A stretch of DNA of 64,000 nt, taken from assembly GCA_028286645.1 (NCBI GenBank), contig JAQBRF010000002.1, positions 186,518 through 250,517 on the forward strand. Reading direction: 5' to 3'. The stretch is from Candidatus Nomurabacteria bacterium. GTDB taxonomy: Bacteria; Patescibacteriota; Minisyncoccia; Phycocordibacterales; UBA5272. Made by a program: the position numbers and the translations under genes. A model generated the notes under the pieces. The model made no database searches. It had not been told where the DNA came from and saw only the letters and a program-made list of their open reading frames with translations. This document shows, piece after piece, positions 3,426 to 64,000 of this stretch (positions are counted from its first letter, which is position 1; each line of letters starts with the position of its first letter).

Positions 3426-3911
3426 ATGAAAATAACTATTTATACAGATGGATCGTCACGCGGGAATCCGGGTAGAGGGGGATGGGGGACCATCATCACA
3501 ACTCCAGAGGAAGTGATTGAGCTCGGGGGGAGAGAAGATTTAACTACTAATAATCGAATGGAATTAATGGCGGCTATAGAAGGTTTAAAGGAAATAGGCG
3601 AAGCTTCGGAAGTAGAAGTGTTTACGGATAGTCAATATGTCAAAAAAGGAATAAGTGAATGGATAGATGGATGGATTAAAAAGGGGTGGATTGGATCTGC
3701 TAAAAAGCCAGTCTTAAATAAAGATCTTTGGGAAATGCTAAAAAAAGAAGAAGATAGATTAAAAAAAGGCGGAGCAAAGATAGTGTGGAAGTATGTACCA
3801 GGACATGCCGGAGTAGTTTTAAATGAACGCGCCGACGTCATCGCTACTATGTATGCTGATGCGATAGACTTGCAATTATATCGCGGCGCAAAAGACGAGT
3901 ATTTATTATAG
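3426..3911 (+). CDS. rnhA: ribonuclease HI
   Basis: MKITIYTDGSSRGNPGRGGWG...NNRMELMAAIEGL...VFTDSQYV...GWIKKGW...NERADVIA, classic RNase H motifs. Confidence 0.85.
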   Translation: MKITIYTDGSSRGNPGRGGWGTIITTPEEVIELGGREDLTTNNRMELMAAIEGLKEIGEASEVEVFTDSQYVKKGISEWIDGWIKKGWIGSAKKPVLNKDLWEMLKKEEDRLKKGGAKIVWKYVPGHAGVVLNERADVIATMYADAIDLQLYRGAKDEYLL

Positions 3912-3964
3912 TAATTAGTTATTGGTAATTAGTAATTAGAAAAATACTAATCAATTTAACACTT

Positions 3965-5500
3965 ATGCACTTAAGAACTCTTATTTTTATAATCGGAGTT
4001 TTAGCAGGGGTCATAATAGGAGAGTCTTCATCATTCGGAAGTGAAATAGCAGTACTTGCTATTTTAATTTCTATAATTCAAGGGGCGATCTATTTCTTTG
4101 AAAGGAAGAATGTAAAGACTGAAAAACTTTATCTGTGTTTGTTTACAATTCTTATTTCGATCGGATTATTTACTGGAATAATTAGAGAACAATTATCAGT
4201 ACAAAAAGATAACTTCACGTGCGCCGCTTGCACCTTCACCGCAAAAGTTATATCAACCCCAGAAGTAAAAGATACATATCAAGTTTTTAATATTCATCCT
4301 GAAGTGAATAATAAAAATATTTATGATGTGGAAGTAAAGACGCCTTTGTATCCCAAATATAAAGCAGGGGACAGGCTTCAGATTTCTGGGAAGGTGAGCG
4401 AACCGAAAGCCATTCTTCCACACAATGATTCAAACTCATTTGATTATGTTTCTTATTTAAAAACAAAAAATGTTGGAAGTGAAATGTTTTATCCGAAAGT
4501 TGAAATATTGCCTAGTGACGGTATAACATTTCAAGAAAGATTAATTTCTTTAAAAGAAAGTCTTATCAGTAAATTAGAAACTTATGTAAGTGCTCCGGCA
4601 TCGTCGCTTGCTTCTGGAATGTTGTTCGGAAAGTCATCAATGCCAATTGAGCTTACAAATACATTTCGTATAGCCGGACTTTCCCACATTATTGTTTTGT
4701 CAGGTTTTAATATCGCAGTTGTGATATCTTTTATACTTTTTATATTCGCATTTATTCCGCTTACTCTTCGTATTATATTTGCCGGGAGTGCAGTTGTTAT
4801 TTTCATACTAGCTGTTGGCGGAGAGGCAAGCGTAGTGCGCGCAACGATCATGGCATTCATCGGACTTTTAGCAACTTTAATCGGTAAAGAGTATGTGGCT
4901 AAACAAGCCCTCATCATCTCATTACTTTTAATAGTAATGTATGAGCCATACTCATTGCTCCATGACGTGTCGCTTCATCTTTCGTTTTTAGCAACTGCTG
5001 GGATAATTTATTTGTCTCCGGTTTTTCAAATTATTTTTAATAAAATAAAAAGCGAATCATTTAGGTCTCTTATCACCACAACTTTGTCAGCGTACATTGC
5101 GACTCTTCCATATATATTATTTACATTCGGGAAGATCTCCATGTATGCACTTTTATCAAATGTTATTGCATTGCCGCTTGTCCCCGCCACTATGCTGCTT
5201 TCATTTCTCGTAATAGTTTCGTCATATATTTGGGGAGGGTTTGGAGTATTGTTTGGATTTGTTACGACGATTTTAGCAAACGTTATTATCTGGGTGGCGC
5301 AAGTAACTGAAAAGATGCCATACTCGTATATTCCGCTTCAAATAAATTTTTATAGCATGATCATGCTATATATTCTGATTGTATTGACGCTTACTTACGT
5401 TTATAAAAAGAAAAATAATAAAGAAAATGAAACGTTACAAACAGAAAACGTACTCATAAGTGGGGTAATTGCTTACTCGACAGTAGAAAATAGAGAGTAG
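3965..5500 (+). CDS. comEC: ComEC/Rec2 competence protein, membrane channel part (no MBL domain in this ORF)
   Basis: Polytopic membrane protein with ComEC signature FRIAGLSHIIVLSGFNIAVV; N-terminal OB-like region. Confidence 0.6.
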   Translation: MHLRTLIFIIGVLAGVIIGESSSFGSEIAVLAILISIIQGAIYFFERKNVKTEKLYLCLFTILISIGLFTGIIREQLSVQKDNFTCAACTFTAKVISTPEVKDTYQVFNIHPEVNNKNIYDVEVKTPLYPKYKAGDRLQISGKVSEPKAILPHNDSNSFDYVSYLKTKNVGSEMFYPKVEILPSDGITFQERLISLKESLISKLETYVSAPASSLASGMLFGKSSMPIELTNTFRIAGLSHIIVLSGFNIAVVISFILFIFAFIPLTLRIIFAGSAVVIFILAVGGEASVVRATIMAFIGLLATLIGKEYVAKQALIISLLLIVMYEPYSLLHDVSLHLSFLATAGIIYLSPVFQIIFNKIKSESFRSLITTTLSAYIATLPYILFTFGKISMYALLSNVIALPLVPATMLLSFLVIVSSYIWGGFGVLFGFVTTILANVIIWVAQVTEKMPYSYIPLQINFYSMIMLYILIVLTLTYVYKKKNNKENETLQTENVLISGVIAYSTVENRE

Positions 5501-5532
5501 ACGGTAGAGAAGATAATACAAATTACAAATTT

Positions 5533-7716: not shown

Positions 7717-7726
7717 GGAGATAGAT

Positions 7727-7756
7727 GTTAGATTTTAGACATTAGATTTTAGATAA
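7727..7756. repeat. dispersed motif copy (TAGATTTTAGACATTAGATTTTAGATAA); gene-sense for minus-strand rpmB, ends ~10 nt before its ATG
   Basis: Read directly; forms inverted pair with 7838-7865. Confidence 0.8.
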
Positions 7757-7837
7757 TTTAAAAAGATACCCAAAAACTTTGTTTTTAAATACTATCATGA
7801 ATTTCTAGCTATCGCAAGCCTGCGTTTCACCGATTTT

Positions 7838-7865
7838 CATCTAAAATCTAATGTCTAAAATCTAG
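7838..7865. repeat. dispersed motif copy (CATCTAAAATCTAATGTCTAAAATCTAG), 19 nt upstream of ATG at 7885
   Basis: Read directly. Confidence 0.8.
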
Positions 7866-7884
7866 TCCGTGGTATGCTATTTAT

Positions 7885-8528: not shown

Positions 8529-9050
8529 ATGTCTTTTATATTTGTCCTTTTTAGCTATACTAAAATAACGATGAAGAAATCCTCTGTCTTTTTAAATAAA
8601 CAAACGTCTAAAACTGTTCGTAAGAGTTCATTTAAAAGAAAAGGCGCTCTTTCTAAAATCACAAGGTCCACAAAACGATTCGGGAAACAAACTTTAAGAG
8701 ATATTTTGTTATCCAAGACATTTCACTCCTCATTTAAGGTTTTAATAGGGCTATTAATATCTGGAACTGCTTTATACGGGGCATATGCCTTTATTGGGAA
8801 TACATTTGCCAACGATATAATAGTGTCTAAGTCTGAAATACTAGCCCGAGTAGGGAAACATACGGATTTGCCGCAAGATCTGCCCGAGGCGGTGGTGAGG
8901 GTGCAGGATCCTGATATCTTAAAGAAGCAACAAGCATTCTATGAAAATGTTAAAGAAGGAGACTATATAATTATTTATCCTAAACTTGCTGTAATATACG
9001 ACTTAAGGAATGATTCTATTATCGCTCTTAAAAGAACAGAGTCGCGCTAA
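8529..9050 (+). CDS. hypothetical membrane-anchored protein (Lys/Ser-rich N-terminus, one TM)
   Basis: ORF only; start may be internal Met (MKKSSVFL). Confidence 0.3.
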   Translation: MSFIFVLFSYTKITMKKSSVFLNKQTSKTVRKSSFKRKGALSKITRSTKRFGKQTLRDILLSKTFHSSFKVLIGLLISGTALYGAYAFIGNTFANDIIVSKSEILARVGKHTDLPQDLPEAVVRVQDPDILKKQQAFYENVKEGDYIIIYPKLAVIYDLRNDSIIALKRTESR

Positions 9051-9075
9051 ATTTTAGACATTTGATTTTAGATTG
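9051..9075. repeat. degenerate dispersed-motif copy (ATTTTAGACATTTGATTTTAGATTG)
   Basis: Read directly. Confidence 0.6.
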
Positions 9076-9163
9076 TTAGAGGATTCAAGAAGCGGAAGAG
9101 GGGGTTTGCAGAAAATGAAAATTATGTTAATATCTAAAAACTATGGTTTTAGGGAATTTCCTA

Positions 9164-9192
9164 TAATCTAACGTCTAAAATCTACAATCTAA
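9164..9192. repeat. dispersed-motif copy (TAATCTAACGTCTAAAATCTACAATCTAA) ending 6 nt before rpsL ATG
   Basis: Read directly. Confidence 0.7.
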
Positions 9193-9197
9193 TTTCC

Positions 9198-9626
9198 ATG
9201 CCTACCGTTAATCAACTAATTAAGAAGCCAAGAACAAGAATAATAAAGAAGTCTCGTTCTATTGCAATGAGCCGTGGTTTTAACGCGATAAAAAATAAAC
9301 CAAACTTCTATAACTCTCCATTTAAAAGAGGTGTATGTCTAAAGGTGACCACCACAACTCCTAAGAAGCCGAACTCAGCTCTTAGAAAGATTGCAAGAGT
9401 TCGCCTTACAAATGGAATGGAAGTGACTGCATATATTCCAGGAATCGGACATAAGTTACAAGAGCACTCTGTGGTCATTATCCGAGGAGGACGTGTGAAG
9501 GACTTGGCTGGTGTGCGTTATCACATTGTGCGCGGAAGATTAGATGCAACGCCGGTAGACAAGAGGATGCAAGGAAGATCTCTATACGGAGCTAAGCGTC
9601 CAAAGGCAGCAGCTGCGAAGAAATAA
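9198..9626 (+). CDS. rpsL: 30S ribosomal protein S12 (with ~15-aa insertion relative to E. coli)
   Basis: [12 protein letters not shown]...[12 protein letters not shown]...[24 protein letters not shown] motifs. Confidence 0.95.
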
Positions 9627-10363: not shown

Positions 10364-10511
10364 ATTAACTACCTGAAAACGGGTTTTATTTTTCCCTAAA
10401 CCACCAAAGGCGGCTGGGCGACACTATTAAAAGTGTTTAGCTTAAAAATTCAAAATCCTTTCGAATTTGTATTCACTAATGACTATTAACCAATAACTAT
10501 TAACTATCTTT

Positions 10512-23209: not shown

Positions 23210-23266
23210 ATAGATTGTAGATTGTAGAAATGCAGATACAATCGAAAATATCTAGAAATACACAAC

Positions 23267-24861: not shown

Positions 24862-24877
24862 GTTAGATTTTAGATAA
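24862..24877. repeat. half copy of dispersed motif (GTTAGATTTTAGATAA), 16 nt upstream of rplB ATG
   Basis: Read directly. Confidence 0.6.
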
Positions 24878-25732: not shown

Positions 25733-25788
25733 CATGAATACTGTCTTTACTTTAGCTAAAAAACTGATATAATTAAGCCCTATTAACT

Positions 25789-26138: not shown

Positions 26139-26495
26139 ATGAAAGCCTCTATTAAAAACTATCGCCAAGCGCCGCGTAAAATTCGCCTTATTACAGATCT
26201 TGTAAAGGGTAAATCTGCCGCACAAGCGCAAGCGATATTAACTCATTTGATTAAAAGAGGCTCACTTCCGGTTAAAAAGCTTCTTGATTCAGCCGTGTCT
26301 AATTCCGGAGAAAAAGCAGAAAATTTAATTGTAAAGAAAATAACAACAGAAAAAGGCGTCGTTATAAAAAGATGGATGCCGCGAGCCATGGGACGTGCGT
26401 TCCCAATTCACAAGCATACAAGCAACATCGTAATCGAATTGGCTTCTAAGAATTCAAAGAAGGATGAAAGCATTAATCTAAAATCTAATGTCTAA
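26139..26495 (+). CDS. rplV: 50S ribosomal protein L22
   Basis: Synteny, L22-like sequence; last 8 codons + stop lie inside a dispersed-motif copy. Confidence 0.9.
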   Translation: MKASIKNYRQAPRKIRLITDLVKGKSAAQAQAILTHLIKRGSLPVKKLLDSAVSNSGEKAENLIVKKITTEKGVVIKRWMPRAMGRAFPIHKHTSNIVIELASKNSKKDESINLKSNV

Positions 26496-26502
26496 CATCT
26501 AA
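26474..26502. repeat. dispersed-motif copy (TAATCTAAAATCTAATGTCTAACATCTAA) overlapping rplV 3' end and 12 nt upstream of rpsC ATG
   Basis: Read directly. Confidence 0.7.
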
Positions 26503-28285: not shown

Positions 28286-28322
28286 CTAGATGGTAGATAT
28301 TAGACATTAGATTTTAGATAAA
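28286..28322. repeat. dispersed-motif copy (CTAGATGGTAGATATTAGACATTAGATTTTAGATAA), 13 nt upstream of rplX ATG
   Basis: Read directly. Confidence 0.75.
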
Positions 28323-42413: not shown

Positions 42414-42469
42414 TAACTCTCTTCTAGTATTCACTGGTAACTGTCAACTGAAAACTGTAAACTGTTCCT

Positions 42470-45184
42470 ATGAATTCCCAATTCTCCACGCCTGAAGAAG
42501 AAATTGCTTATTTGCGAGCACAAGTAAAAGAAAAACAAGAAAAAGCCAAAGGATTTGAAGATCGCTTCACTCCTATTGATCATGCAAATGAAGTTGTTAG
42601 AGAATATAGAGAAACTCCTACAGAAAAAGTAATAACTCCAGAGTTTCAAGCAAGTTCGGCCACACATAAAAAGTTATTAGAATGGCTTGCTCCGAAATCA
42701 ACCGATGAGCAGATATTCATGCTTTCTCAAGTTATAGCAGAAAAGGGCATAAAAAATGCTTTTAATCTTCTTGAGAAAATGAATAGTCCCGAGCTTGACG
42801 ATGACTTTGAAAGATATTTGGCACAATACATCATTTCAGGACATGAAATAAAAAACGATATTTCAAAGGATGAGTGGAAAGCGCTTCACATGAGACTTTT
42901 TGAAATAGTATTGCCGGACGCGGATGGATCCAATGGAAAGTCGATGAAAGAAATGATGGCTCTTATGGAACAATGGTATGCCTCTATGCAAGCACTCGCC
43001 CGAGATGCCACAAACAAGGAAAAGAATTATTACTCTCTTGAAGTCGGGGTTTCTAATGGTTCGACGACTGCATCATTTTATTGTGCTGTTCACATTGATT
43101 ATGCTGATCTTTTCGAGAAGGTGGTTCTGGGAGTGTTCCCGACAGCACAAATTAGGGAAAATAAAGAAGATTATAATATTTTCCATGAACATGCCATAAC
43201 TACAGCATCTTACGCTACTCATAGCACGCACCCCGCCTTACCTATTAAGACATATGCGGATATGGAGGCTGATCCGATGTCCCTTATTCTTTCTTCCTTT
43301 ACTAAGATTGCAAAAGACGGAGAAGGCTTAGCTCTTCAATTGTTAATTCGACCAGCAGGGGATGTGTTCGCAAAGAGATTTGGAGAGATGTTGGAAGACT
43401 TACGCAAGGGAGAAACAATGAAGCGGGTTATTGATAAACAAAGTGCGCTTAAAGAAACTTTGTTTTTATTAAATTCGATGTTTTCGTCCCCTAAACCGAA
43501 AGAGGAGGAAAAAGAAAAGAAGCAAACCTTCATTGATGAAAATGCAATTAAGTATGTTCAGGATAAATTATCCAAAACAATCATCGAGTCTAATTTAAGG
43601 ATCATCTCTTCTGCGAGCTCTCTGCCTCGTGCGCAAGCTATCAGACATGATTTAGAAAGCTCGTTTATTCAATTCACTCAAGTGGGGGGCAATAGCATTG
43701 TCTTTAAGGAAGTAACAGGGAGCCGCCAGAAAGCCATGCTTCATAGATATTCATATAGATTATGGAATGAAGACGAAAGTTATCCTCTTAACTTAACAGA
43801 ACTTGCTTCAATCTTCCATTTTCCTACGCAATCTAAAGATGTATCAAATGTGCGTGAGCAAACGGCCGCCATGGCCCAGCCTCCGCTTGATATGCCGCAG
43901 GACGGCGTAATTCTGGGGGTAAATAATTTCCGCGGAGAAGAAAAGACGATTCACTTTAGTCGAGAAGATCGTATGAGGCATTTATATGTTATAGGACAGA
44001 CAGGAACCGGTAAGACGGGAATTCTCAAGAATTTAATTATTCAAGACATTAAAAATGGCGATGGATGCTGTTTCATTGATCCGCACGGGTCTGACCTCTT
44101 AGATATTTTAGCGAATGTCCCGCCTGAGCGAGCAAAAGATGTGATTTACTTTGACCCGGCGTATACAGAACGCCCCATGGGATTAAATATGCTGGAGTAT
44201 GATAGAAATTTCCCTGAACAAAAGACTTTTGTGGTAAACGAGCTCTTGGGTATTTTTGATAAGCTTTTTGATATGAAAGCAACGGGAGGTCCGGGATTTG
44301 AGCAATACTTCAGAAATGCGACCATGCTAGTTATGGAGCACCCAGAGTCTGGCAATACACTTTTGGAAATTTCTAAAGTATTTTCTGATAAGGATTTCAG
44401 GGATTATAAATTATCAAAATGTAAAAATCCTATGGTGTTACAATTCTGGCAAAATGCTGAAAAGACCACAGGAGATCAAGGGCTTCAGAACTGGACGCAG
44501 TACGTAAATAGTAAATTCGATGTCTTCATGACTAATGACATTATGCGTCCTATTATTGCTCAGGAAAAAAGCTCATTTAATTTTAGAGATATTATGGACA
44601 CCAAAAAGATATTTCTCGTTAATTTATCAAAAGGACGACTGGGAGATCTAAACTCTTCTCTTCTAGGTCTTATTATTGTAGGGAAGTTTTCACAAGCGGC
44701 GCTCTCCAGAGTAAATATAGTCGATGTTAAAGAAAGAAAAGATTTTTACTTGTATATTGATGAATTCCAAAACGTATCAACGCCTTCAATTGCCACGATT
44801 TTATCTGAAGCTCGTAAATATAGGCTATCACTTAACATTGCTCATCAGTACATAGGCCAGCTTACGGAAGAAATAAAAGGCGCGGTTTTCGGCAACGTCG
44901 GGTCTATGGCCGTATTTCGCGTAGGGCCTGACGATGCAAAATATTTAGAAACTCAGTTTGCTCCAATATTTACCGCAACTGATATAATGAGGATAGAAAA
45001 TCGTCATGGATATTTAAAGACTCTTGTAAATGGAGAGCCTAAAAAGCCTTTTGATATAAAAACACTTAATACCGAGCACGGAGACGCCAGCCGTATCGAG
45101 CCATTGAAAGAATTAAGCTACTTAACATATGGAAGACCGAGAGAAGAAGTGGAGGCAGAAGTGCTCAAGAAGTTCCAATTATAA
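42470..45184 (+). CDS. P-loop ATPase of the VirD4/TraG/TrwB (T4SS coupling protein, AAD_bind)-like class with ~480-aa novel soluble N-terminal domain
   Basis: Walker A YVIGQTGTGKTG followed by ...CCFIDPHGS; Walker B LYIDEFQNV; ARKYRLSLNIAHQ; no N-terminal TM helices. Confidence 0.5.
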   Translation: MNSQFSTPEEEIAYLRAQVKEKQEKAKGFEDRFTPIDHANEVVREYRETPTEKVITPEFQASSATHKKLLEWLAPKSTDEQIFMLSQVIAEKGIKNAFNLLEKMNSPELDDDFERYLAQYIISGHEIKNDISKDEWKALHMRLFEIVLPDADGSNGKSMKEMMALMEQWYASMQALARDATNKEKNYYSLEVGVSNGSTTASFYCAVHIDYADLFEKVVLGVFPTAQIRENKEDYNIFHEHAITTASYATHSTHPALPIKTYADMEADPMSLILSSFTKIAKDGEGLALQLLIRPAGDVFAKRFGEMLEDLRKGETMKRVIDKQSALKETLFLLNSMFSSPKPKEEEKEKKQTFIDENAIKYVQDKLSKTIIESNLRIISSASSLPRAQAIRHDLESSFIQFTQVGGNSIVFKEVTGSRQKAMLHRYSYRLWNEDESYPLNLTELASIFHFPTQSKDVSNVREQTAAMAQPPLDMPQDGVILGVNNFRGEEKTIHFSREDRMRHLYVIGQTGTGKTGILKNLIIQDIKNGDGCCFIDPHGSDLLDILANVPPERAKDVIYFDPAYTERPMGLNMLEYDRNFPEQKTFVVNELLGIFDKLFDMKATGGPGFEQYFRNATMLVMEHPESGNTLLEISKVFSDKDFRDYKLSKCKNPMVLQFWQNAEKTTGDQGLQNWTQYVNSKFDVFMTNDIMRPIIAQEKSSFNFRDIMDTKKIFLVNLSKGRLGDLNSSLLGLIIVGKFSQAALSRVNIVDVKERKDFYLYIDEFQNVSTPSIATILSEARKYRLSLNIAHQYIGQLTEEIKGAVFGNVGSMAVFRVGPDDAKYLETQFAPIFTATDIMRIENRHGYLKTLVNGEPKKPFDIKTLNTEHGDASRIEPLKELSYLTYGRPREEVEAEVLKKFQL

Positions 45185-45971: not shown

Positions 45972-46553
45972 TTATTTGACTCGTTCTACGTATTCACCAG
46001 TCTCAGTATTCACTACAATCTTTTCTCCCACTTCGATAAAAAAGGGAGTAGTAACTTGCGCGCCGGTTTCTAGAGTCACTAGTTTTCCGCCTCCAGAAGC
46101 CGTATTTCCTTTAATAGCAGGAGGGGCATCTTTAACTTCAAAAGTCATTTTTATTGGAAGCTTAAGTCCTATTACTGTTTCTTCATCCTCATATTCAAAT
46201 ATCTGAAGTTCTACAATAGTATCTCCTTTTAAGAATTTGGCTTTATCTCCAATTATATTTTCGTCTACTGTAAATCTATTTTTAGGATCTTTCGGATCTG
46301 TAAACCAAAATTCTCCTTTTGATGCATAAATAAACTTTGCTTCTCTTTTTGTAACATCAGCTTCATCTGCTGTTTCTGTCGAGTGAAATGTGGCAGGAAT
46401 AACTTTTCCATTAATGAGGTTTCTCATCTTTACTTGGTTCTGTGGCTTTCTCTGCTGAGTACGCGCTACATGAGACTCAAGCACTTCAAAAGGCTCATCT
46501 TTATAGATAATGTACTTTCTCTCTTTAATTTCGTTGTATTCTAGTTTAGCCAT
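45972..46553 (-). CDS. efp: elongation factor P
   Basis: 193 aa; EF-P three-domain sequence. Confidence 0.9.
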   Translation of the reverse strand: MAKLEYNEIKERKYIIYKDEPFEVLESHVARTQQRKPQNQVKMRNLINGKVIPATFHSTETADEADVTKREAKFIYASKGEFWFTDPKDPKNRFTVDENIIGDKAKFLKGDTIVELQIFEYEDEETVIGLKLPIKMTFEVKDAPPAIKGNTASGGGKLVTLETGAQVTTPFFIEVGEKIVVNTETGEYVERVK

Positions 46554-46560
46554 AAGACTA

Positions 46561-46596
46561 GGTATTAGATTTTAGACATTAGATTTTAGATAAACC
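46561..46596. repeat. dispersed-motif copy (GGTATTAGATTTTAGACATTAGATTTTAGATAAACC), gene-sense for efp, 7 nt upstream of its ATG
   Basis: Read directly. Confidence 0.8.
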
Positions 46597-46698
46597 TAAT
46601 ACAAATACTGATAATCTCAAGATTATAGCAGAAAATAGGGGAATTTCAATTTTTGACAATTTGATTTTAAAGTAGCAGGATAGGGAGATTCGACTCTT

Positions 46699-49074: not shown

Positions 49075-49176
49075 AGGAATAGTTTTTTAGTTAATGGTTA
49101 ATTGTTACTAATGGCTAAGGATTTTAGATGGATGCTGATATGAATTTAGCTAACATCGCTATCTAATATCTACCAT

Positions 49177-49533
49177 CTAGTCCTTGGGTATTACTCGCAG
49201 CGTCTTTGTAACTTCCGCGCCGTACTGGTCCTTCGCGCTTATTATAATTATAGTATATGGATAGTATGGAACCAAGGTTTCTTTAAAGTGCCCTTCAGTG
49301 TCTATAGTTATTTGGCGGCCCTGAAGAGTGATTTCCCGTGATCTTAAAACCCTTCCAGAGACCTCAAAAGTAGTGCTTGCTACTGGATCGCCGTCTCCTG
49401 GCGAGTATATTGTTATTGAAGGCCCGGAAAGGAGGGGATAAGCCCTAAAAATGCCATAAAATACCGCGATTAGCACCAGTAGGCCTATTATATAAGGCTC
49501 TAATTTTTTTCTTAAATCGTAGGTTTCTATCAT
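49177..49533 (-). CDS. hypothetical membrane-anchored protein
   Basis: N-terminal TM, soluble beta-rich domain. Confidence 0.3.
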   Translation of the reverse strand: MIETYDLRKKLEPYIIGLLVLIAVFYGIFRAYPLLSGPSITIYSPGDGDPVASTTFEVSGRVLRSREITLQGRQITIDTEGHFKETLVPYYPYTIIIISAKDQYGAEVTKTLRVIPKD

Positions 49534-51828: not shown

Positions 51829-51923
51829 ATAGATTAATCTTATGAAAAAAGTATATCAAAAATATTCTTTATTATATAAGGAATAACTTGGTACTAGATA
51901 GTAGAGGACAGATGTTAGATTTT

Positions 51924-51959
51924 AAATGACATTCTTTCCGAAAGGAAAGAATGTCATTT
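51924..51959. promoter_or_regulatory. perfect 16-bp stem / GAAA-loop hairpin (AAATGACATTCTTTCC-GAAA-GGAAAGAATGTCATTT) flanked by dispersed-motif half copies
   Basis: Read directly; in divergent intergenic region upstream of ftsK. Confidence 0.6.
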
Positions 51960-52166
51960 CGCTTTTATTAATCTACCATCTAAAATCTGTTGTCTATATA
52001 TCTCCTGTATACAGGGACATAAAATTTCTATTCGACAAGTCTTTACAGGATAAATAAAAGGCATAGAATGGACACATATAAAATAATATATAGGACATTT
52101 TAAGAAGAAAGGTAGAGGGAAGGAAAAGTTATTTTATATAAGAGACATTAGCCCGTATGTTGTAAG

Positions 52167-57078: not shown

Positions 57079-57251
57079 GGATTTTGTAAACCAAAGAAGT
57101 CAGTGAAAATAGTTTATTTTCATAAATCTGGCGGAGGTAACTTATATAGATAAACTCTGTATATTTACTCTAAATTTGTTTTATCAGATAGTTAGTTATC
57201 TGTTTATTGAATTCCGCTAGCGGCTAACGGCTAACGGCTTATAGCTACCAC

Positions 57252-57743: not shown

Positions 57744-57846
57744 AGGTAAATTGATTTAAGATTAAAGATTCACGATTTAAGAATTTATTCATAAATCATA
57801 AATCCTAATTCATAAATCAAAATTATAAAAATAATTTTTAACAAAC

Positions 57847-60477: not shown

Positions 60478-60613
60478 TAAAGGTACCTTTATATGTCGAA
60501 GTATAAAGGTGTTTGCCCCGTAGTAAACATTTTATTTAAGTCTTTGTATAAAGATTGATTCTAAGTTTAATTACAGGGCATAATACACACTTTTATAATT
60601 AATAATTTCTAAT

Positions 60614-62004: not shown

Positions 62005-64000
62005 TTTCCTAATAGGAACATAAGAGCATACGGTGAATGCCTAGGCTCTAAAGAGCGAAGAAAGACGTGATCAGGCTGCGATATGTTTCGGGGAGGTGCC
62101 TTATAACCTACGATCCGGAAATTTCTGAATGGGGAAACCCTCTTGGAGTAATGTCCAAGAGTCTAATGGAGCATTCCATAGACGCGCACCCAGGGAAGTG
62201 AAACATCTCAGTACCTGGAGGAAAAGAAAATAAAAATTATTCTGCAAGTAGCGGCGAGCGAAAACAGAGAAGCCCAAACCAAAAGTAGTAATACTTTTTG
62301 GGGTAGTAAGACAAAAACGTAGATTTCTAGAAGAGTTACAAAAGATAAGTATAGATAAAGTTGTTGGAAAGCAACGCCATAGAAAGTGAAAGCCTTGTTA
62401 TCGAAATATTTATCTCTCTTTTGTTTTTGATCTTGAGTAGTTCGAGACACGAATAGCTCGGATGAATCAGCCGGAACTAACCGGCAAGGCTAAATATCTT
62501 TAGAGACCGATAGTGAACTAGTACCGCAAGGGAAAGGTGAAAAGAACCCCGGGAGGGGAGTGAAATAGAACTGAAACCGTATGTTTACAAAGAGTAGAAG
62601 AGGTATTTATACCTCGACTGCGTGCCTATTGAAGAATGAGCCAACGAGTTGTAGGTTACTGCAGGCTAAGGGGCATAAAGTCCTGGAGCCATAGCGAAAG
62701 CAAGTATGATAAGTGCGACCAAATTGTAGTAGCTTACAGACCCGAAGCCGGATGAGCTTACCATGAGCAGGGTGAAGTATACCGAAAGGTATATGGAGGC
62801 CCGAACCAGTAGACAGTACAACTTCTTTGGATGACTTGTGGTAAGGAGTGAAAAGCTAATCGAATTCGGTAATAGCTGGTTCTCTCCGAAATAGTTTTTG
62901 GACTAGCGTCGCGTGTTCCCTCTGGGGGTAGAGCACTGGAAGGTTTTTACTAGTAGCAATACGGAAAAACCTATCAAACTCCGAATACCAGAGGTTAAAA
63001 ATGCGGCAGTAAGACCACGGGGGCGAAGCTCCGTCGGTCAAAAGGGAAACAGCCCAGATCTCAAGTTAAGGTCCCTAAGTATATATTAAGTGTAAGCGAG
63101 GAGGTGGAGTTTCATTGACAATGAGGATGTTGGCTTAGAAGCAGCCATCATTGAAAGAAAGCGTAATAGCTCACCCATCGAGAGACTCTGCGCCATAAAT
63201 GATCGGGACTCAAATATATCACCGAAACTGAGGGCTTGATAACTTTTCGAAGTTTTCAAGCGGTAGGAGAGTGTTCCACTCTGCGTTGAAGCGGAAGGGG
63301 TAACCCACCGTGGAGCGTGTGGAAGTACGAATGTTGGCACAAGTAACCGCAATGGGGGTGAGATCCCCCCACGCCGAAAGAATAAGGTTTCCTTTGCAAT
63401 GATTGTCAGCGAAGGGTTAGTCGGGCCTAAGGAGATGGCAAACGCCGGATCCGATGGACATAAGGTTAATATTCCTTAACTCGGTACTAATGTGATGGGA
63501 TGACGGAGGGTAGTATATAAGGCGTCTTATTGGATTGACGTTTATTATGTAAGAACGAGAGGCAGGGAAATCCACCTCTCTGACTTTAATGTCAAGTTCA
63601 AGCATCGTATGAAGGCGCGGGGCAACCCAAACCAACTTTATAAAGCACGCTTCCGAGAAAAGTCTCTACATTCTGTGAATACAGAACGTCTATATGTGTC
63701 TTGGTTTATTCTAAGATACATATAGATGCTTAAGTTAGTATTGATCCGTACCGCAAACCGACACAGGTATTCAGGTCGAGTAGACCAAGGCGAACGAGTG
63801 ATATCTCCCAAAGGAACTAGGCAAAAAAGCGATCGTAAGTTAGCGATAAGATCTGCCCCCATCACTTTGTTTTTAAACAAAGTGCGGGTCCTAGAGAATT
63901 GGATAGAGACAACCGTAACTATGCTAGAGCTAGCATGGTTACAAAAAATGTTTGTGTTTATTAGTGAGTGATCGTGTATTTCATTGAGAATTTTTGTTCT
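62005..64000 (+). rRNA. rrl: 23S rRNA, 5' ~2 kb (continues beyond window); start approximate (+/-30)
   Basis: AAGAGCATACGGTGAATGCCTAGG...GAAGAAAGACGTG, GGGAAGTGAAACATCTCAGTACC...GTAGCGGCGAGCGAAA, CCGATAGTGAACTAGTACCGCAAGGGAAAGGTGAAAAGAACCCCGGGAGGGGAGTGAAATAGAACTGAAACCG match universal 23S domain I-III. Confidence 0.9.

Follow-up and report, generated by a model that had tools for sequence, protein, structure and literature searches.

In the window analysed here, a 64,000-nucleotide stretch of contig JAQBRF010000002.1 from the metagenome-assembled genome of a Candidatus Nomurabacteria bacterium, a dispersed motif of about 26 nucleotides (nt) that an earlier note had described in front of several start codons is a tandem heptad array of the form (TCTAANN)3-5. 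With its unit refined to RTCTAAN, the motif makes up one family of the short tandem repeats, seven nucleotides to the unit, that occur at gene boundaries both here and in many other bacteria. It is probably part of the messenger RNA (mRNA) leader, not a promoter, and our tentative proposal, to which we give somewhat less than an even chance, is that the arrays are transcribed heptad-repeat spacers that would replace the Shine-Dalgarno (SD) region and serve SD-independent initiation or re-initiation. The earlier note overlooked four aspects, namely the heptad nature of the repeat, which is of a known kind, the arrays of other units in other leaders of the window, the antisense copies on stop codons, and a possible origin of the type of repetitive extragenic palindromes (REP) or miniature inverted-repeat transposable elements (MITE).

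All of the motif sites listed before were found, at counts far above chance. Counted with at most one mismatch, TCTAAAATCTA has 26 occurrences in the window (3.5 expected), and the highest count reached in 100 shuffles is 9. TCTA recurs at 7-nt steps in runs of three to five units; there are nine runs of at least three units (0.02 expected) and seven of at least four units (0 expected). The full 26-mer is exact at 7729-7754(-), 7839-7864(+) and 46566-46591(-), carries one mismatch at 26476-26501(+) and 28294-28319(-), and two mismatches at 9048-9073(-). Tandem Repeats Finder (TRF) reports period 7 at every motif site, together with a 14-nt superperiod, TCTAAAATCTAATG, and the units of an array often alternate between TCTAAAA and TCTAATG. 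Over 84 arrays the unit consensus is R-T-C-T-A-A-N, with a purine before the T and a free sixth position, five to six of the seven positions being constrained in each unit. Each unit read together with the next T gives TAANNT.

Five sense arrays are located in the window, and their claimed position at gene starts is confirmed, the last TCTA lying 5-20 nt before the ATG. The five-unit array at 7722-7753(-) ends 5 nt before the ATG of rpmB (7716), and the four-unit array at 7840-7864(+) ends 20 nt before the ATG of the M50 protease gene (7885); the two form the inverted pair between divergent genes that had been recognised previously. Further four-unit arrays lie 6 nt before the rpsL ATG at 9198 (9167-9191(+)), 12 nt before the rpsC ATG (26477-26501(+)) and 12 nt before the efp ATG at 46553 (46566-46590(-)). 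The array upstream of rpsC also supplies the end of rplV; this overlap is real (rplV ends at 26495), but it comprises about six to seven codons plus the stop and not the eight codons reported. Identities of the flanking genes were confirmed for M50, S12, L22, S3, L24, L2, RecA and EF-P, and L28 (rpmB) is a full-length but sub-threshold match.

Each of the six antisense copies in the window adjoins or overlaps the stop codon with which the upstream gene ends. A degenerate four-unit array at 5484-5508(-) overlaps the comEC stop (5500); the copy at 9048-9073(-), which has the two mismatches, begins on the stop of the open reading frame (ORF) 8529-9050; three units of TCTACAA at 23211-23228(-) follow the rpsJ stop by 1 nt; a two-unit copy at 24864-24874(-) follows the rplW stop by 9 nt; a five-unit array at 28287-28318(-) is separated by 1 nt from the rplN stop and by 16 nt from the rplX ATG that follows, a junction where two relatives also have antisense heptads; and three units at 49162-49179 extend into the stop codon of ORF 49177-49533(-). 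The reverse copies described ahead of rplB and rplX are thus real, and the one after rpsJ likewise stands ahead of rplC. Four TAGA...TCTA inverted pairs are present in the window (7722/7840, 9048/9167, 49120/49162 and 51895/51972). The third (49120-49179(+)) is located in the spacer upstream of recA. The fourth consists of degenerate arrays that face outwards, at 51895-51926(-) and 51972-52005(+), between ftsK and a divergent gene of 293 amino acids (aa); they flank a perfect 16-bp hairpin with a 4-nt loop at 51924-51959 (AAATGACATTCTTTCC GAAA GGAAAGAATGTCATTT). This hairpin and the half copies at 49119-49180 and 51911-51992 are present as described before. A comparable layout of a hairpin with outward-facing arrays is seen in locus L158. 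Stop codons in all three frames are contained in 12 of the 15 period-7 arrays of the window, where 1.2 would be expected.

The heptad habit of these leaders extends beyond TCTA. TRF located 17 further period-7 arrays in the window, with units that include TAGTAAT, TATTAAC, AACTGTA, GCTAACG, GATTTAA, TCATAAA and TTTATAA, and nearly all arrays of other units lie just upstream of starts (comEC, fusA, a VirD4/TraD-like gene, rplJ, rplL and ORF 60614). The unit TATTAAC is repeated 5.4 times at 10470-10507(+), 4 nt before the fusA ATG; others were placed by TRF at 3909-3939, 42439-42465, 57216-57239, 57753-57829 and 60592-60613. In the 50 nt upstream of starts, identity at a lag of 7 nt is 0.350 versus about 0.29, and it is 0.332 when the TCTA arrays are removed.

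In total, 204 distinct arrays were analysed from the window, from loci that share a 19-mer, and from syntenic relatives. The 19-mer TCTAAAATCTAATGTCTAA is present in more than 120 metagenome contigs of 30-65% guanine-plus-cytosine (GC) content and in one viral contig. Looser TCTAANN arrays occur, among the matches listed, in Bacteroidota, Cyanobacteria, Patescibacteria, Clostridia and others; a degenerate contig scan with TCTAANNTCTAANNTCTAANNTCTA, whose listed matches are dominated by perfect TCTAAAA repeats of Microcoleus, shows breadth only. A start codon within 70 nt is faced in sense orientation by 73 of the 204 arrays and in antisense orientation by 15; with the limit set at 35 nt, sense and antisense stand at 37:7 in low-GC loci and at 16:0 in high-GC loci. 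The modal gap between array and ATG is 5 nt, as in TCTA-CCCCT-ATG, which leaves no room for an SD sequence; CCCCT precedes many ATGs, and in the upstream sequences of arrays no canonical ribosome-binding site (RBS) was seen between repeat and start. An antisense partner within 150 nt is found for 35% of arrays, compared with a background of 1.8%, and the polarity of such pairs is almost fixed (TAGA...TCTA in 66, the opposite in 3), with loops mostly of 16-60 nt.

The downstream genes across loci are diverse and include MreB, LysRS, a PilB-type ATPase, RecO, nuoE/H/I and ClpP. The suggestion that the motif coordinates highly expressed genes is unsupported by such a list, and a regulon of translation genes was rejected on the same grounds. 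In a single metagenome contig (L215), the spacers upstream of nuoE, nuoH and nuoI are filled by arrays; arrays of Flavobacterium and Chryseobacterium (L050, L077) that had been taken as nuoH-upstream were dropped, as the ORFs concerned have only 14 and 33 aa. Some contigs carry much more of the repeat. Four metagenome contigs of 41-51% GC (L125, L136, L202 and L232) are saturated with TCTAACG/TCTAATG arrays, about 20 of them in the 12.6 kb of L125, with conserved small palindromes such as GGGTCTGCGACCC and CCGCGCTAGCCC between the arrays; their repeat system is denser and more complex than that of the window. Arrays of ten or more TCTAANN units are found in L189, L230 and L241, the last being an IMG/VR viral contig.

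The setting in which the arrays occur bears on what they might do, and the lineage appears, from its upstream sequences, to be largely leaderless. TAnnnT is located 6-9 nt before the ATG in 89 of 255 non-array genes (35%), compared with 37 of 255 in the control window, and the extended -10 element TGnTAnnnT has a sharp peak 6 nt ahead of the ATG (28 of 378 genes, taken from the window and the Parcubacteria-like loci L121-L250). SD-like 4-mers upstream of starts are rare, at most 5% at -5 to -8, and the statement that the host genes lack SD sequences holds. The 3' end of 16S ribosomal RNA (rRNA) was sought in the sampled loci, none of which contains a 16S gene. Our literature searches found no link between Patescibacteria or Parcubacteria and SD-less or leaderless initiation, and a search on the literal motif returned nothing relevant.

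Predicted promoters are located upstream of several arrays. TGnTAnnnT stands 29-35 nt upstream of six arrays, including those of rpmB, rpsL and efp (31-35 nt), and is present in the search window of 8 of 39 arrays against a background of 4.3%. The rpmB array is preceded at 35 nt by TGaTAGTAT (7789-7797(-)), the rpsL array at 33 nt by TGtTAATAT (9125-9133(+)), and the efp array at 31 nt by TTGAAA-16-TGcTATAAT (46622-46649(-); 11 of 12 matches, with the TG), a promoter that is kept in relatives whose leader has no TCTA array. Because a predicted extended -10 element lies upstream, the arrays of these three genes would be transcribed within a 5' untranslated region (5'UTR) of about 65 nt. Whole-region promoter scans gave no enrichment over shuffles, and only individual conserved matches are used here. 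The leaders of rpmB and rpsL are also alike in themselves: at 7760-7797(-) and 9125-9160(+) both read TGnTAnTAT followed by yTAAAAAC...GTTTTwGGG, and the segment after the extended -10 could form a small 5'-terminal hairpin.

Of the three options raised by the earlier note, a translation-initiation element in the leader fits these sequences best, and a compact promoter is disfavoured at rpmB, rpsL and efp, which account for three of the five sense copies, by the extended -10 elements that lie 31-35 nt upstream of the array. In its wider form, the promoter explanation says that the last TAANNT of an array is the -10 element of a leaderless or very-short-leader mRNA, or that the array is an upstream element in the -35 region of an adjacent extended -10. 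It draws on the leaderless habit of the lineage, with TAnnnT enriched at 6-9 nt and TGnTAnnnT peaking at 6 nt, on the 8 nt that separate the last array hexamer from the ATG in arrays of the modal class, on four arrays that abut an extended -10, on two tRNA genes of other phyla that have an array 9-11 nt ahead of them, and on a TTGTAT-like motif that is often found ahead of arrays (a fixed register from TTGTAT as -35 to the -10 was rejected in the composite, since the spacing varies). However, the array hexamers carry neither TGn nor TTG, and their spacing of 8 nt is off the 6-nt peak; extended -10 elements are already present 29-35 nt upstream of six arrays; some heptads of relatives at the same sites (such as CTAAACC, ACTAATT and GCTAACG) cannot be -10 elements, nor can the TAACTGA arrays of other bacteria; and some arrays make up the whole intercistronic spacer in tight operons, as happens in the S10 operon and in a nuo operon. 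Bacteroidota promoters have a different -7 motif, and still the arrays of Bacteroidota are equally near the ATG. Scored as sigma-70 -10/-35 elements, array hexamers give weak matches of 9/12. Taken together, we consider it unlikely that the arrays are promoter modules.

Comparison of relatives shows both turnover and conservation. Across four relatives, spacer length in the S10 operon runs from 4 to about 110 nt, and related genomes carry heptads at the same junctions, but the units differ and the arrays come and go: the rplV-rpsC junction has TCTA in two genomes and GCTA in one, the rpsQ-rplN junction has ACTAA or TCTA, and the rplN-rplX junction has antisense TTAG-type arrays in three genomes. 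The efp leader has been replaced between relatives with 93% protein identity. In one orthologue pair the array is identical at 34 of 34 positions and the flanking coding DNA at about 80%, and the array of the nuoH-nuoI spacer is kept in six contigs whose far-upstream DNA is unalignable. Such conservation argues for constraint, although copy-to-copy conversion could mimic it. No variation in copy number was seen, the unit number being constant in orthologous arrays of six contigs and of two contigs; a phase-variable simple sequence repeat is ruled out by this constancy and by the imperfect units.

The same comparison bears on the view that the arrays are selfish or neutral repeats of the STRR (short tandemly repeated repetitive sequence), REP or MITE kind, which arise by slippage or insertion and are tolerated, functionless, at the boundaries of SD-less genes. 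Several observations suit it: the exact 19-mer recurs across contigs of very different GC content and in a viral contig, inverted pairs are frequent, turnover between close relatives is quick (the efp leader, the S10 spacers), some contigs are saturated, as L125 is, and heptamers are the commonest of the long simple repeats of prokaryotes, as Mrazek (2007) is cited in PMC4679880. Two RNase P RNA genes (RF00010) outside the window also contain arrays; the gene at 4014-4462 of L233, a contig of 63% GC, encloses the inverted pair TTAGAC...TCTAA, the gene at 1-344 of L093 encloses an array, and both are lengthened by heptads. Functionless repeats would not be expected to show an orientation bias of about 5:1 or more relative to start codons, a pair polarity of 66:3, conservation well above that of flanking coding DNA (with the reservation on gene conversion made above), or re-use of the same operon junctions with different units, and the pairs of the window lack both a conserved internal core and a target-site duplication. 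A purely selfish or neutral repeat is, on balance, improbable. In the narrower form of a MITE- or Correia-like element with a conserved core it is disfavoured, because the cores of two inverted pairs of 143-144 bp do not align and only their arms are common; no target-site duplication was seen at these two pairs of the window.

The sequences show the anatomy of the arrays, their bias in orientation and position, the predicted promoters upstream and the conservation in orthologues; any effect on translation is an inference. According to the leader-spacer proposal, the arrays would originate by slippage or insertion, as in other heptamer repeats, and sense copies, once transcribed, would make up the final 25-32 nt or so of a 5'UTR or of the spacer between two cistrons, with about 5 nt left to the AUG. 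At this place the array would replace the SD region by an A-rich, weakly structured stretch, its UAA in all three frames would stop ribosomes arriving from upstream, and it could serve as an SD-independent landing or re-initiation site. A protein that binds single strands periodically, of the S1 or Csp kind, may recognise it. Antisense copies on the upstream stop would provide UAG in three frames and could pair with a sense copy in read-through transcripts. The array leaders fold weakly, with minimum free energies of -1.3 to -12.5 and z between -2.0 and +1.8, and no shared RNA structure was found in six promoter-to-ATG leaders. A mini-ORF inside the array (ATG TCT AAA ATC TAA) was rejected, as rpsL has ACG and other arrays ATC or ATT at that place.

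Several points weigh against the leader-spacer proposal. First, at least four genes (the M50 gene, mreB in two contigs, and the gene in L194) have the array upstream of an extended -10 that lies 6-8 nt from the ATG; in the case of M50 this is TGgTATGCT at 7870-7878(+), 6 nt before the ATG and between array and start, a geometry of leaderless type. An array directly upstream of such an ATG-proximal element would therefore be untranscribed from that promoter, which is a misfit with a role in RNA only. Second, translation is irrelevant to the arrays inside RNase P RNA (L233 and L093) and to those 9-11 nt upstream of the two tRNA genes. Third, about a quarter of the arrays are antisense and located at stop codons. 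Fourth, many arrays pair into stable hairpins, L107 for example, which contradicts an unstructured leader. Fifth, constraint at six of the seven positions of R-T-C-T-A-A-N exceeds what a generic unstructured spacer would need. Finally, the loci were ascertained by the 19-mer search and their genes were called by a simple ORF rule.

In a bolder view, to which we give still less credit than to the promoter module or the selfish repeat, RUCUAAN heptads would mark gene starts that work without an SD, as a signal defined by its sequence and shared across phyla, with Patescibacteria and Bacteroidota among its users. The signal would be read by a conserved factor with a footprint of 7 nt that either binds single strands or is a nuclease, for which an S1, Csp or KH-type protein or an endoribonuclease might be considered, and the reader would either load ribosomes or trim the transcript to a 5'-proximal AUG. 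In this manner internal or leadered cistrons would become translatable by ribosomes adapted to leaderless mRNAs.

Two further explanations are each given only a small chance. An operator would be a site where a protein binds contiguous heptads on double-stranded DNA and regulates adjacent promoters, on the model of the omega repressor of pSM19035 or of ToxT/H-NS at the TTTTGAT repeats of ctx. The contiguous heptads, three to five per site and in both orientations, that overlap or flank predicted promoters are in line with this, and so are the five to six constrained positions per unit, which suit sequence-specific recognition, and the inverted pairs that flank promoter regions at 7722-7864 and 9048-9191. 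Such a site, however, needs neither a strong orientation bias nor a tight distance to start and stop codons; arrays are located inside operons and in an RNA gene, their spread over very distant phyla demands a near-universal binder, and no candidate heptad binder was found among 17 distinct ORFs of the window (ten examined by Pfam, ten by NCBIfam, three in both). The other explanation, a processing hairpin, supposes that in read-through transcripts the two copies, antisense at the stop and sense at the start, anneal into a long A-U stem, which is cut, for instance by RNase III; the cut would uncouple the cistrons and leave the AUG near a new 5' end, suited to a leaderless-adapted ribosome. The pair polarity and loop lengths would agree with this, as would the preference of the lineage for 5'-proximal AUGs, the pair of L107, whose stem of about 30 bp ends 8 nt before the AUG (z = -8.5), and the pair upstream of recA (z = -2.2); a heptamer-repeat 5'UTR of Haemophilus is reportedly targeted by RNase III (PMC12721329). 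On the other hand, 65% of sense arrays have no partner within 150 nt, the window's own pairs fold weakly, that of rpsL no better than shuffles (z = -0.23), and the partners of the rpmB/M50 pair are on divergent transcripts.

The wider content of the window includes the str/S10/spc ribosomal region and part of a 23S rRNA gene. The latter begins at 62010 (62010-64000), and because the preceding 62 kb contain no 16S rRNA gene the rRNA genes are unlinked; no tRNA genes were found in the whole 64-kb window. A gene for an ATPase of about 900 aa, DUF8128 or TraD-VirD4-like (42470-45184), adjoins efp and is syntenic in all relatives examined (loci L242-L246). The rplB-rpsS spacer (25733-25788, 56 nt) holds a promoter-like TTTACT-17-TATAAT 15 nt before the rpsS ATG and is almost invariant in the window and four relatives, whereas neighbouring spacers vary freely; an internal promoter is one possible reading, a conserved element of some other kind the alternative.

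How start codons are chosen without SD pairing is an open question, above all where the cistron is internal. Sulfur bacteria and cyanobacteria have been known since 2015 to carry heptamer repeats near start codons, which have stayed unexplained; the same anatomy is now seen in a largely leaderless genome of the Candidate Phyla Radiation (Patescibacteria), where the question becomes testable by virtue of the orientation and distance rules, the predicted upstream promoters, the conservation in orthologues and the antisense class on stops. Should the arrays be inert, they would still be useful to annotation as boundary marks, as suppliers of stop codons and as an account of odd spacer lengths in ribosomal operons.

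Among known systems several resemble the arrays in part. Heptad operators are represented by the omega sites (WATCACW)n of pSM19035 and the TTTTGAT repeats of ctxAB in Vibrio cholerae. Both these operators and the RTCTAAN arrays consist of unspaced heptads, direct or inverted, at promoters and in 3-10 copies; the operators differ in being protein sites on double-stranded DNA that overlap the -35 or lie upstream of it and are not known to be tied to start or stop codons, and in having different units. Correia, REP and MITE elements share with the inverted pairs the arms of about 25 nt around a short core, the intergenic position near gene starts, the many dispersed copies and the capacity to be co-transcribed and to form hairpins. 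Unlike in those elements, the arms here are themselves heptad tandem repeats, and many copies are single arms.

Closer to the present family are the STRR heptamers of filamentous cyanobacteria, which Vioque in 1997 reportedly found inside the cyanobacterial RNase P RNA gene; the TCTAANN family has the same trait in L233 and L093. Both are dispersed intergenic heptanucleotide arrays near promoters or start codons, and in Nostoc PCC 7120 contiguous heptamer repeats near start codons have been described whose function is unresolved (bioRxiv 10.1101/2022.06.06.494920). The STRR/Nostoc units (CCCCAGT, TTGGTCA, TTCAAAA, GACYAAT) are different from RTCTAAN, STRR arrays are usually perfect and longer, and the present host is not cyanobacterial. 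The TCTAAAA arrays of Microcoleus are perfect repeats with conserved flanks of their own.

The closest known description is that of the TAACTGA heptamer repeats, the STRR/Nostoc heptamers being the other relatives. TAACTGA direct repeats occur in marine Beggiatoaceae and also in some Cyanobacteria and Bacteroidetes; their function is unknown, and translational roles through S1 or Csp have been proposed (MacGregor 2015, PMC4679880). Like the RTCTAAN arrays, they are tandem 7-nt units in 2-6 copies, almost entirely intergenic, forward-oriented right upstream of start codons without an RBS; in both, some arrays run into the end of the preceding ORF and give its stop, both are located inside ribosomal-protein operons (fusA, rplC and others), and both have diverse downstream genes and a minority class directed toward stop codons (PMC4679880). 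One array of the window, at 42439-42465 (AACTGTA, nAACTGn), resembles the published unit itself. The differences are that the unit here is RTCTAAN, with one to two free positions and a 14-nt superperiod, that the host belongs to the Patescibacteria and its lineage is largely leaderless, that the modal gap to the ATG is 5 nt compared with 1 nt for TAACTGA (PMC4679880), and that the present family often has inverted pairs as well as antisense copies located on stop codons.

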